Sequence record: MN648445
Source of the DNA: Escherichia phage FP43
Length of the DNA: 64,000 nt
Reading direction: 5' to 3' (one strand)
Positions 13,876-30,871 of the stretch are shown one piece after another. Within the stretch, counting starts at the first letter, position 1. The number at the start of each line of letters is the position of its first letter. Under the pieces are notes generated by a model, which was not told the DNA's origin, searched no databases, and saw only the letters and a program-made list of their open reading frames with translations. Position numbers and translations under genes: made by a program.

Positions 13876-14775
13876 ATGTTTAAACGTAAATCTACTGCTG
13901 ACCTCGCTGCTCAAATGGCTAAACTGAACGGTAACAAAGGTTTCTCTTCAGAAGATAAAGGCGAATGGAAGCTGAAGCTAGATGCATCAGGTAATGGTCA
14001 AGCGGTAATTCGTTTCCTGCCAGCAAAAACTGATGACGCACTACCATTTGCAATTCTTGTTAACCACGGTTTCAAGAAAAATGGTAAATGGTATATTGAA
14101 AATTGCTCTTCTACACATGGTGATTACGACTCTTGTCCTGTATGTCAGTACATTATTAAAAATGACCTGTACAATACCAACAAAACTGAATATTCTCAAC
14201 TGAAACGTAAAACTTCTTATTGGGCTAATATTCTGGTTGTTAAAGACCCTCAAGCTCCAGATAACGAAGGTAAAGTATTTAAATATCGTTTCGGTAAAAA
14301 GATTTGGGACAAAATCAATGCAATGATTGCAGTTGATACCGAAATGGGTGAAACTCCGGTTGATGTTACTTGCCCGTTTGAAGGTGCCAACTTCGTTCTG
14401 AAAGCTAAGCAGGTTTCCGGTTTTAGCAACTATGACGAATCTAAATTCTTGGGTCAATCTGAAATTCCTCGTATTAATGACGAAGCATTCCAGAAAGAAC
14501 TATATGACCAGATGGTAGACCTTACTACTTTGACGGCTAAAGACCAGTTCAAATCCTTTGAAAAATTAAATGAATCTTTCGCTAAGGTTCTTGGTACTGC
14601 CGCTCTTGGTGGTGCAGCAGCTGCCGCAGCTTCTGTTGCAGATAAAGTTGCTTCTGACCTCGACGATTTTGATAAAGACATGGAAGCCTTTAGTTCTGCA
14701 AAAACTGAAGATGACTTCATGAGTTCCTCGTCTTCTGACGATGGCGACCTCGATGACCTGTTAGCTGGTCTATAA
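13876..14775 (+). CDS. 32: gp32 single-stranded DNA-binding protein
   Basis: 299 aa; [36 protein letters not shown]... matches T4 gp32; acidic C-terminus. Confidence 0.95.
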
Positions 14776-14781
14776 TAAATT

Positions 14782-14804
14782 GGGAGACTTCGGTCTCCCT
14801 TTTG
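14782..14804 (+). terminator. rho-independent terminator after gene 32
   Basis: GGGAGAC-TTCG-GTCTCCC + TTTT. Confidence 0.8.
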
Positions 14805-14831
14805 GGCATCTGTAACTTACCTAAAAAAGTT

Positions 14832-14860
14832 GTTTACTTCCTCCAAGGACATGATACTAT
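14832..14860 (+). promoter_or_regulatory. early promoter cassette (PeSL-like)
   Basis: GTTTAC 14832-14837, N17, TACTAT 14855-14860; then CAACAACATGAGGAAA RBS block. Confidence 0.65.
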
Positions 14861-14889
14861 AGACCTATCAACAACATGAGGAAATCAAG

Positions 14890-15276
14890 ATGGAAATCGG
14901 AAAAACTTATATCATTAACCCTTTATTTAAAGATGACTTTGTCCAAGAAGCTCCACGCAATAACAGCCGGATGCTAGATTTGATCGAGAAACATGGCCCA
15001 AGTTTTGTTGTGGAAGAAGATGAATATGATGGCGACGGCTACAACGTAGTATGTGTAACCATGGAAGATGGCACAGAATGTTCTGCTGGCGGTCCGGCAG
15101 AAACTTATTTTGAAATTTATCCTGACGAGTTCAAATACTTCAACGAGGTGACTTTAGAAAAGCCTCAACCTATTGACGAAGGTATAGTTTTAGGTGTAAC
15201 AAAAATTCATTGTGTCGTGGATGAAACTAACGTTGACGAAATCATCGAACTTTTGCAAAAAACTTTTAAAAAGTAG
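14890..15276 (+). CDS. hypothetical protein (128 aa), paralog of 15338..15700
   Basis: Shared IGKTYIINP...HGPSFVV...DEFK.F.EV blocks with the next ORF; own promoter cassette. Confidence 0.6.
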   Translation: MEIGKTYIINPLFKDDFVQEAPRNNSRMLDLIEKHGPSFVVEEDEYDGDGYNVVCVTMEDGTECSAGGPAETYFEIYPDEFKYFNEVTLEKPQPIDEGIVLGVTKIHCVVDETNVDEIIELLQKTFKK

Positions 15277-15314
15277 TATACAAAAAGATAGGACTATGTT
15301 ATAGTAGTCCTATC
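15276..15314 (+). promoter_or_regulatory. early promoter cassette (GTATAC variant) with 10-bp hairpin around the -10
   Basis: GTATAC 15276-15281, -10 TATAGT 15300-15305; inverted repeat GATAGGACTA (15287-15296) / TAGTCCTATC (15305-15314). Confidence 0.55.
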
Positions 15315-15337
15315 AAAACAAATGAGAGGAAATCAAA

Positions 15338-15700
15338 ATGAAAATTGGAAAAACTTATATCATCAATCCAGAATGTAAAGCTATCTTCGCCAATGAATGC
15401 CCACAAAACGCCGATATGCTGGCTTTGATTGAGCTTCATGGTCCTAGTTTTGTTGTAAAAGACATGAACACAGATTATGATGATGATAAATGTGTAACCC
15501 GTGTAACTATGCGAGACGGTACTGAATTCGGTTTTGATGGTAAGCCAGGTTCATATTTTGAGCTTTATGATGATGAGTTTAAACACTTCATCGAGGTATC
15601 TCCAGAGTCTATTTCTAAACAATCACTCATCTTTGAAGTGACTACGGAAAATGCTCGAGATGTGATTGCAGAAATTAAAGAAATTTTTGGAATAAAATAG
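15338..15700 (+). CDS. hypothetical protein (120 aa), paralog of 14890..15276
   Basis: Clear similarity to the upstream ORF; own promoter cassette. Confidence 0.6.
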   Translation: MKIGKTYIINPECKAIFANECPQNADMLALIELHGPSFVVKDMNTDYDDDKCVTRVTMRDGTEFGFDGKPGSYFELYDDEFKHFIEVSPESISKQSLIFEVTTENARDVIAEIKEIFGIK

Positions 15701-15736
15701 TATACAACAGAGTAATGGTGTGATACTATTACTCTG
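15700..15736 (+). promoter_or_regulatory. early promoter cassette (GTATAC variant) with 9-bp hairpin around the -10
   Basis: GTATAC 15700-15705, TACTAT 15724-15729; inverted repeat CAGAGTAAT (15708-15716) / ATTACTCTG (15728-15736). Confidence 0.55.
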
Positions 15737-15765
15737 TCAAAACAAATGAAGCAACGGAGAATAAA

Positions 15766-16014
15766 ATGAAATTACAACGCCAAAGCATTAACGATTCTGA
15801 AGTTAAAGGCAAATGGTACTTCAACATCCTTGATAAAGATGCTGAACTCCTTGAACAAGCTGAAGCAGCTTTACGTGAAATGGGCTGGAATGAAGAATGT
15901 GATGGATGTCCACTTTATGAAGACGGCGAAAGCGCAGGATTCTGGATTCACCACTCCGACGTTGAAATGTTCAAAGCTGATTGGAAAGTTGTTAAAGCAA
16001 ATCTGAGGAAATAA
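15766..16014 (+). CDS. hypothetical protein (82 aa)
   Basis: ATG ORF with its own upstream promoter cassette. Confidence 0.5.
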   Translation: MKLQRQSINDSEVKGKWYFNILDKDAELLEQAEAALREMGWNEECDGCPLYEDGESAGFWIHHSDVEMFKADWKVVKANLRK

Positions 16015-16016
16015 AA

Positions 16017-17792
<1,776 letters not shown>

Positions 17793-22060: not shown

Positions 22061-22089
22061 TTTACACACCACAAGGATTGTGGTATAAT
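22060..22089 (+). promoter_or_regulatory. early promoter upstream of rnlA
   Basis: GTTTAC 22060-22065, N18, TATAAT 22084-22089. Confidence 0.65.
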
Positions 22090-22106
22090 TTAAAAAAACT
22101 AACTGA

Positions 22107-24649: not shown

Positions 24650-24678
24650 TTTACAAACTCTCAGGAGCAGAGTATAAT
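24649..24678 (+). promoter_or_regulatory. early promoter cassette
   Basis: GTTTAC 24649-24654, N18, TATAAT 24673-24678; flanking AGGAGC/GCTCCT inverted repeat. Confidence 0.6.
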
Positions 24679-24706
24679 GCTCCTATGGATAATTGAGGAA
24701 ATCTAA

Positions 24707-26774: not shown

Positions 26775-26813
26775 GTTTACAACATGGTGGAGTTGTGATA
26801 CTATAACTCTACC
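26775..26813 (+). promoter_or_regulatory. early promoter cassette (PeSL-like)
   Basis: GTTTAC 26775-26780, N18, TACTAT 26799-26804; imperfect 9-bp inverted repeat 26786-26794 / 26805-26813. Confidence 0.6.
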
Positions 26814-26832
26814 AACAAATGAGGAAATAGAA

Positions 26833-30801: not shown

Positions 30802-30841
30802 GTTTACTTTGGTACAGGTTATGTTATTATAGACCTGTACC
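30802..30841 (+). promoter_or_regulatory. early promoter cassette with 9-bp hairpin around the -10 (PeSL-like)
   Basis: GTTTAC 30802-30807, TATTAT 30825-30830; inverted repeat GGTACAGGT (30811-30819) / ACCTGTACC (30833-30841). Confidence 0.6.
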
Positions 30842-30871
30842 AACAAACAACTTAAACATCTGGAGAATAAA

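Follow-up and report, generated by a model that had tools for sequence, protein, structure and literature searches.

[quoted passage not shown] The promoter consensus of the T4/PST cassettes is TTTACW-N17-TAYWAT. For the RB49/phi1 cassettes, lacZ fusions showed promoter activity and terminator-like stem-loop activity, mini-circles joined at PeSLs were detected by inverse PCR, and the crossovers of the RB49 mini-circles were mapped between the -10 and the SD (PMC2839356; PMC4122927). In all of these phages the cassettes lie in hyperplastic regions and adjoin indels or replacements between close relatives. Mosigvirus PeSLs, and the conservation across genera of a single orthologous PeSL upstream of frd.1 with a changing stem, appear to fall outside the topic of the two papers.

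The T4 gene frd.2 lies in the order 32 - frd.3 - frd.2 - frd.1 - frd - td - nrdA and encodes a protein of 128 aa, for which an SH3/LSm-like barrel of the kind also found in GoF and MotB.1 has been published (Kim et al. 2025, PMC12152347). Reports on the importance of Frd.2 conflict, since T4 frd.2 amber mutants plate normally (PMC12152347) while CRISPRi-ART, a genome-wide knock-down screen, scored frd.2 as 'Fit', the sole T4 fitness gene of unknown function (PMC11879866). A tandem frd.2a/frd.2b is annotated in Dhakavirus JS10 (NC_012741), an equivalent pair is present in Gelderlandvirus UTK0003, and three Frd.2 copies occur in the Vequintavirinae phage A7_1. The family is small, with 42 matches at E<=1e-3 among 1.84 billion cluster representatives.

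The window analysed here is a stretch of 64,000 nucleotides from Escherichia phage FP43 (MN648445), a T4-type phage genome read along the early-transcription direction. On the + strand, rnh, dsbA, gene 33, gene 59 and gene 32 lie upstream of the two ORFs of interest, ORF-A (14890..15276) and ORF-B (15338..15700), both also on the + strand; on their 3' side follow a DUF5417 gene (frd.1), a 112-aa ORF and the genes for dihydrofolate reductase, thymidylate synthase (td, uninterrupted in the window) and nrdA, a gene order that agrees with the T4 map. The nearest public genomes over 20 kb were the RB69-group Mosigviruses LH01, ATK47, phiEC1, Mizar and phage 55 (~96% identity), but for the 1.4 kb that holds both ORFs the best identity to public genomes was only ~91%. 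The phage is an RB69-group Mosigvirus (T4-type) coliphage, and the locus is its variable region from gene 32 to frd. The upstream anchor of this region is gene 32, encoding the ssDNA-binding protein (13876..14775, + strand), a 299-aa ORF that was aligned with the annotated gp32 of Mizar, LH01 and T4. Its downstream anchor is frd.1 (15766..16014, + strand; Pfam DUF5417, 3.8e-35), the counterpart of T4 frd.1. An intrinsic terminator of gene 32 was read from the sequence at 14782..14804 (+ strand; GGGAGAC-ttcg-GTCTCCC, then TTTT), and the records of WFL6982, ATK47 and wV7 carry a terminator annotation on the same hairpin (14782-14799 in FP43). Apart from ORF-A and ORF-B, no further FRD2-like ORF was found within the window, and neither Rfam families nor tRNAs were detected in it.

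The explanation that we prefer, with a probability of about 0.8, is that ORF-A, itself a chimera, and ORF-B represent old Frd.2 paralogs that lie between PeSL cassettes, are shuffled as modules and evolve under purifying selection. Both components, Frd.2-family early genes and PeSL cassettes, are of kinds that are already known.

A first-pass annotation of the sequence had called the two ORFs clear paralogs, and the comparison bore this out. BLASTP aligned residues 1-90 with 51/92 identities (55%, E=2e-26), and both ORFs scored far above the gathering threshold of 29 for Pfam FRD2 (PF03197), with 115.7 bits for ORF-A (128 aa) and 76.9 bits (2e-21) for ORF-B (120 aa), indicating that the similarity is not compositional, the outcome on which that annotation had said its claim would fall. 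The sharing of sequence blocks was correctly seen, but the identity judged by eye (40-45%) was somewhat lower than this 55%; the global identity is 49%. Over the last ~30 residues the two ORFs are only 14-28% identical, but with intermediates in the alignment this part, too, aligns as homologous. Both ORFs also matched phrog_622, and both occupy the position of Frd.2, with gp32 upstream and DUF5417/frd.1, DHFR and td downstream.

T4 Frd.2 belongs to the same Pfam family as the two ORFs, sits in the same place between gene 32 and frd.1, and has the length of ORF-A. In T4, however, frd.2 is single and preceded by frd.3, whereas FP43 has two copies and no frd.3; ORF-B also differs from T4 Frd.2 in carrying another C-tail and a linker ~9 residues shorter. 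A sequence search of the PDB gave no match. Profile matches to giant surface proteins rich in bacterial SH3 repeats (P0059, P0066, P0068) were set aside as weak, repeat-driven noise, at most an echo of the SH3-like fold.

AlphaFold (AF2) models were built from an alignment of 31-40 sequences and reached pLDDT values of 86.7 and 89.4, the latter for ORF-B. The order of elements was the same in both models, namely beta1, two helices, beta2-beta3-beta4, a short helix, beta5, a linker and a C-terminal helix. Both proteins are accordingly modelled as a beta-barrel of the SH3/LSm-like type at the N-terminus that is connected by a flexible linker to a helix at the C-terminus, and the five-stranded bent N-terminal barrel of ~85-90 residues, followed by a flexible linker and a C-terminal domain, corresponds in these predictions to the GoF/MotB.1/Frd.2 fold. 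The predicted architecture of T4 Frd.2 is the same, and its structural neighbours, FeoA-type SH3 barrels, GoF and MotB.1, are also those of the FP43 proteins. A Foldseek search of the BFVD viral models recovered GoF and T4 MotB.1, which reproduces the published result (PMC12152347). In sequence, BLASTP found no similarity between T4 GoF and ORF-B (E=6.9), and T4 GoF gave a faint match (E=0.034) to a Karamvirus 225-aa protein annotated 'goF'; the link to GoF therefore rests on the fold and the literature, not on sequence.

Both Frd.2 paralogs are strongly acidic, small, early proteins, and for ORF-B the pI is 4.55 and the net charge -10. The close Sm/Hfq structural match combined with basic RNA-binding faces, by which a bona fide LSm (Hfq/Sm) protein would be recognised, was not found for them. 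From the negative charge, a protein-binding role appears more plausible than Hfq-like RNA binding.

In the first-pass annotation, the tandem arrangement was taken as the footprint of cassette-mediated duplication and of diversifying pressure, such as would act on an anti-defence or host-takeover factor. On this account, gene and promoter cassette were recently duplicated in situ and the copies diverged rapidly. The two genes are indeed adjacent, their 5'UTRs and first codons are 76% identical over 79 nt, and TAG-TATACA stands at both ORF ends. However, dS between ORF-A and ORF-B is 1.2-1.6 and thus saturating, and the pair does not show what recent tandem copies should show, being neither each other's closest relatives over the full length nor low in synonymous divergence. 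Both lineages already stand in tandem in other genera, the order is reversed and lacks an internal cassette in phage 55, ATK47 and ESh15, and neither of the two cassettes with strong hairpins is a copy of the other. ORF-A and ORF-B represent old lineages of Frd.2 paralogs, corresponding to frd.2b and frd.2a, respectively.

The two parts of ORF-A, moreover, have different histories. Its N-domain (residues 1-88) is 56% identical to ORF-B and ~30% identical to T4 Frd.2, whereas its C-tail (residues 101-128) is 14% identical to ORF-B and 86% identical to T4 Frd.2. A tree of the N-domain placed ORF-A outside the T4/frd.2b-type clade (100% bootstrap) and together with the 2a-type proteins and ORF-B, whereas a tree of the C-tail placed it with that clade (100% bootstrap), with ORF-B among the 2a-type tails. 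Since the two trees disagree with full bootstrap support, ORF-A is a chimera of two lineages, with a 2a-like N-domain and the highly conserved 2b/T4-type C-tail. Other chimeras were found in metagenomes, where two proteins (P0028, P0070) combine a B-like N-domain with an A-type tail. The split phylogeny and the dS values largely refute the account of a recent duplication with rapid divergence under diversifying selection, which we regard as quite improbable.

The pairs in JS10 and UTK0003 are the closest counterparts in other genera. As in FP43, two adjacent Frd.2 paralogs lie 3' of gene 32, one with the tail 'NA..VIA.IK..FGI' and one with 'GVTKIHCIV...LLQKTFKK', and both tail types are present in FP43. 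In JS10 and UTK0003, however, 2a precedes 2b at a distance of 4-21 nt, leaving no room for an internal promoter cassette, whereas in FP43 the 2b-tailed gene comes first and is followed by a cassette, the 2a-type gene and another cassette. The FP43 2b-tailed gene also differs from that pair in having a 2a-like N-domain.

The substitution rates gave no indication of the proposed diversifying pressure. dN/dS was 0.29 between ORF-A and ORF-B, 0.09-0.25 among copy-A alleles and 0.10-0.13 among copy-B alleles, and no 15-codon window exceeded 0.85, none therefore reaching 1. The windows with the highest values covered the disordered linker and codons 1-15, pS being only 0.07 over the latter. The copy-A alleles are unusually diverse, with 73-85% amino-acid identity between phages ~96% identical overall, which would by itself favour rapid divergence, as would the standing of frd.2 as the only T4 fitness gene without known function in CRISPRi-ART for a takeover factor. 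In view of the low dN/dS, this diversity consists of old alleles moved by recombination and kept under purifying selection, and no rapid adaptive change was detectable. An anti-defence or host-takeover role as such is neither supported nor excluded by these results.

A promoter cassette was found before each of the two ORFs and before frd.1, all on the + strand. Cassette c1 (14824..14889) consists of an A-tract, a -35 (TTTACT, 14833-14838), a 16-nt spacer with TGn, a -10 (TACTAT, 14855-14860) and an SD (GAGGAAA, 14878-14884), followed by the ATG of ORF-A at 14890. Cassette c2 (15274..15337) begins with a TAG stop that abuts the -35 (TATACA, 15277-15282), which is followed after 17 nt by the -10 (TATAGT, 15300-15305), preceded by TG and enclosed in a hairpin, and then by an SD and the ATG of ORF-B at 15338. 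Cassette c3 (15698..15765), which serves frd.1, has the same layout, with a TAG stop abutting the -35 (TATACA, 15701-15706), a 17-nt spacer, a -10 (TACTAT, 15724-15729) preceded by TG and enclosed in a hairpin, an SD (GGAG, 15756-15759) and the ATG at 15766. A reading of the cassettes as middle promoters with a MotA box was dropped, no TGCTT box being present at -30.

The hairpins of c2 and c3 are strong. In c2, the arms at 15287-15296 and 15305-15314 are 10 nt long and 100% complementary (11 bp with G.U), with an MFE of -16.6 kcal/mol and z=-7.7 against spacer shuffles. In c3, the arms at 15707-15719 and 15725-15737 are 13 nt long and 92% complementary, forming a 10-bp perfect stem (13-14 bp with G.U) with an MFE of -17.0 kcal/mol and z=-4.8. 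The perfect inverted repeats that had been noticed around the -10 of the two GTATAC-type cassettes were therefore confirmed, at 10 bp in each; the further statement that each of the two ORFs has a hairpin-containing cassette was supported as well, with a stem in c1 that is degenerate and only 5 bp long. Perfect stems of at least 9 bp occur in ~0.1% of random windows of the same size. A pattern scan of the window returned 15 + strand promoter sites of the same kind, at which stems were significantly enriched; the mean stem length was 5.9 bp compared with 3.9 bp in random windows, and stems of at least 7 bp were present at 5/15 sites against 2% expected.

With these features the cassettes conform to the published definition of PeSLs and share the layout of those in RB49/phi1, T4/PST and KVP40/nt-1. 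The stem is stable in c2 and c3; that of c1 is weak, but the gene 32 terminator hairpin lies directly 5' of this cassette. Differences from the described PeSLs were also observed, in that the FP43 stems are A/T-richer than the G-run/C-run stems of RB49, and the -35 of c2 and c3 is TATACA, compared with TTTACW in the T4/PST consensus. By analogy with the PeSLs of RB49/phi1, for which activity and mini-circles have been shown, c1-c3 are predicted to act as promoters and their hairpins as attenuators.

To follow the hairpin beyond FP43, 24 distinct cassettes were assembled, namely c2 and c3 of the window together with their counterparts in T4, in related Mosigviruses and in IMG/VR contigs that represent several T4-like lineages, most of them upstream of frd.1 or of a mini-ORF preceding frd.1. 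The IMG/VR scan returned 2 loci with ORF-A as query and 19 with the better-conserved frd.1. All 24 cassettes fold into hairpins of 10-14 bp enclosing the TGn/-10, although 19 different 5'-arm sequences occur among them, and shuffling of the spacer only abolished the fold (mean z -5.1); the cassettes are related and so not phylogenetically independent. Compensatory changes were observed in both FP43 stems. In c3, CAGAG/CTCTG of FP43 is replaced by CAGGG/CCCTG in Mizar and LH01, a double change. In c2, FP43 has GGACT/AGTCC and phage 55 has GGGCT/AGCCC, and intermediate states with G.T pairs are seen in ATK47, ESh15 and LH01. RNAalifold, applied to an ungapped promoter-anchored alignment of 12 cassettes, yielded no consensus structure, a consequence of small register differences between the stems; folding was therefore evaluated per sequence together with the spacer shuffles, and a hand-fitted structural alignment was avoided as circular.

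The pattern of conservation bears on the level at which the repeats act. If they acted as DNA, they could be operators for a dimeric repressor of early promoters, for which a position bracketing the -10 would be ideal, or cruciform or recombinase targets driving the shuffling; PeSL-flanked mini-circles have been detected in RB49 and phi1, and the PeSL authors speculated that a recombination function might recognise the stem-loop (PMC2839356; PMC4122927). A sequence-specific operator is at odds with stems that differ wholly between cassettes while pairing is kept, and the 4-9 nt loops would disfavour cruciform extrusion. The two strands are also not equivalent, as a symmetric DNA element would require, since the sense-strand RNA was more stable than the antisense RNA in 22/24 cassettes (Wilcoxon p=3e-5), with 39 G.U pairs in sense and 23 in antisense, an asymmetry to which the G+T richness of the sense strand may partly contribute. 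A role at the DNA level is therefore considered distinctly unlikely, and the hairpin is probably under selection as sense-strand RNA.

The same asymmetry speaks against a role as terminators for late-direction (antisense) RNA synthesis that runs into the early region. A CTTTTTG follows the c2 hairpin on the minus strand, where this hairpin received a terminator-like score, but a minus-strand T-run is absent from c3, from the T4 cassette and from most relatives, and minus-strand RNA folds on average 4 kcal/mol weaker, making this explanation very improbable. In the sense direction, c2 and c3 lack a U-tract and are poor canonical intrinsic terminators, so that attenuation or 3'-end protection is suggested rather than classical intrinsic termination.

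Comparison of related phages showed three Mosigvirus configurations of the locus. WFL6982 carries only A, and the question of a cassette between copies does not arise. In phage 55, ESh15 and ATK47 (where B is unannotated), B precedes A with a spacer of 25-29 nt and no cassette. The order A, cassette, B, cassette is found in the FP43 window, Mizar, LH01, phiEC1, the LF82 series and an IMG/VR contig. Copy number in relatives, which the first-pass annotation had wished to see checked, thus amounts to two in Mizar, LH01 and phage 55 and to a single A in WFL6982. The arrangement of the window occurs in ~19/323 matching records, and a close B-type gene in ~21/569 FRD2-bearing records.

Mosaicism was observed in the cassettes and in the genes. 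The 5' half of c2 resembles the Mosigvirus cassette that follows copy A and its 3' half the leader before B in the B-A phages, with the junction between the -10 and the SD, the interval to which the RB49 crossovers were mapped (Arbiol 2010, PMC2839356; Comeau 2014, PMC4122927). Cassette c3 has an almost identical counterpart in T4, the cassette on the 3' side of frd.2. Relative to Mizar, the window is ~100% identical in the flanks and 62-90% identical over 14800-15250, that is, over c1 and ORF-A. The c1 region (80-90% identical to Mizar) forms the left edge of this divergent patch, and the right edge lies at ~15250, near the 3' end of ORF-A and just before c2, at a resolution of ~50 bp. ORF-B, by comparison, is 100% identical in nucleotides to copy 2 of Mizar and LH01. 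Mizar and LH01 have a copy-A allele with 91% identity to the Frd.2 of Tequatrovirus wV7 (dS 0.27), indicating exchange across genera.

The three configurations and the divergent patch place the FP43 cassettes, like the described PeSLs, next to indels and replacements between close relatives, and they fit shuffling of PeSL-bounded modules. That PeSLs mediated the recombination is what we infer from the literature and from the structure of the locus; ordinary homologous or illegitimate recombination, with no special role of PeSLs, could also have produced the B-A and A-B arrangements. Of the duplication claim, what survives is the involvement of cassettes, which are PeSLs of the kind implicated in T4-type gene shuffling, and what is lost is the recent duplication of gene and cassette together.

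In the proposed mechanism, each cassette, starting at or just after the upstream stop, would supply the next gene with a sigma70 -35/TGn/-10 early promoter and an SD. The promoter spacer would pair with the -10/discriminator region, and since the predicted start site lies 3' of the left arm, the full hairpin could form only in transcripts that read through from the upstream gene and not in those initiated at the cassette's own promoter. The hairpin may then attenuate read-through transcripts or stabilise their 3' ends while the promoter re-initiates, so that each gene would be a self-contained expression module. The common cassette ends, from the -10 over the SD to the first codons, would offer short homology for recombination, which may have generated the configurations A only, B-A and A-cassette-B and exchanged the ORF-A allele along with the c1 promoter region.

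A more speculative extension, unlikely as it stands, is that the Frd.2a- and 2b-type proteins form a two-part, allele-matched system, whose acidic barrels would pass between phages as modules, either PeSL-bounded or intragenic, and so keep pace with a variable host target, for example a component of defence or RNA decay, and in which the -10-enclosing hairpin would be a switch coupling upstream read-through to firing of the downstream promoter. If this were true, the locus would be a tractable model of how T4-type phages keep old allele pools of a fitness gene.

The modest value of the locus lies in the natural experiment that it offers, in which the two genes are arranged in three ways among phages ~96% identical overall. 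The hairpin of one orthologous cassette has been retained in several T4-like genera despite changes in the stem sequence, and the natural Frd.2 variants point to constructs for the study of a T4 fitness gene.

The slot between frd.1 and frd is variable among the relatives, and in the window it is filled by an ORF of 112 aa on the plus strand (16017-16355). This ORF matched phrog_8592, and the Pfam search returned no match for it. The phrog_8592 ORF was absent from the Mosigvirus relatives Mizar and ESh15, while LH01, phage 55 and WFL6982 carried other, unrelated small ORFs in its place. No promoter cassette was found upstream of the 112-aa ORF, and its leader is of the SD type only, similar to the leaders of ORF-A and ORF-B, the two Frd.2-family paralogs between gene 32 and frd.1. 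The thymidylate synthase gene (16932-17792, plus strand, 286 aa) is uninterrupted in the window, unlike T4 td, which is split by the intron encoding I-TevI.

Further early-promoter cassettes with stems of the kind seen in c2 and c3, the hairpin cassettes preceding ORF-B and frd.1, were located on the plus strand at 30803-30845, 26776-26815, 24650-24690 and 22061-22100. In the first of these, a 10 bp stem (TGGTACAGGT/ACCTGTACCA) surrounds the -10. The c2 hairpin (15287-15314), taken on the minus strand, precedes CTTTTTG and was scored as intrinsic-terminator-like; this T-run is missing from c3 and from most relatives.

In the Mosigvirus ATK47 (KT184309), a complete B-type frd.2 of 120 aa at approximately 1190-1555 of locus L014, between gene 32 and the annotated frd.2, is missing from the public annotation. 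A hydrophobic mini-ORF of 22 codons lies between the frd.2 cassette and frd.1 in T4 (MFAPYIMAAVMLVCLYLLIKAC), ESh15 and an IMG/VR contig (L018); the T4 and ESh15 records consulted carry no annotation for it, and the window does not contain it.

For copy A, the counterparts of ORF-A in relatives, Frd.2 of the Tequatrovirus wV7 (L010, 1501-1887) shared 91% identity with the Mizar copy (L002, 1693-2079) at a dS of 0.27, and likewise with that of LH01. Between T4 Frd.2 and Mosigvirus copy A, represented by ORF-A of the window, identity reached only about 44%. This indicates that Frd.2 alleles have been exchanged between genera. Across seven alleles, the synonymous difference was 0.07 in the first 15 codons of copy A (14890-14934 in the window), compared to 0.4-0.9 deeper in the gene, and either homogenisation or constraint seems to act on the nucleotide sequence of the cassette-adjacent 5' end.

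Frd.2 relatives were also found outside the close phages. At the goF position (L006, 2486-3160), the Karamvirus Enterobacter phage vB_VIPECLUMC02 encodes a protein of 225 aa that is annotated as 'goF mRNA metabolism modulator'. The sequence of its N-terminal domain is clearly similar to that of the Frd.2 barrel, with 37% identity to ORF-B at E=3e-13. Judged by its sequence, this protein links the Frd.2 position to that of GoF. Three Frd.2 homologues were present in tandem (L009, 1242-2375) in Escherichia phage A7_1 (Vequintavirinae), an rV5-like phage that does not belong to Straboviridae; neither the Frd.2 family nor its array-forming tendency is therefore limited to T4-like phages.
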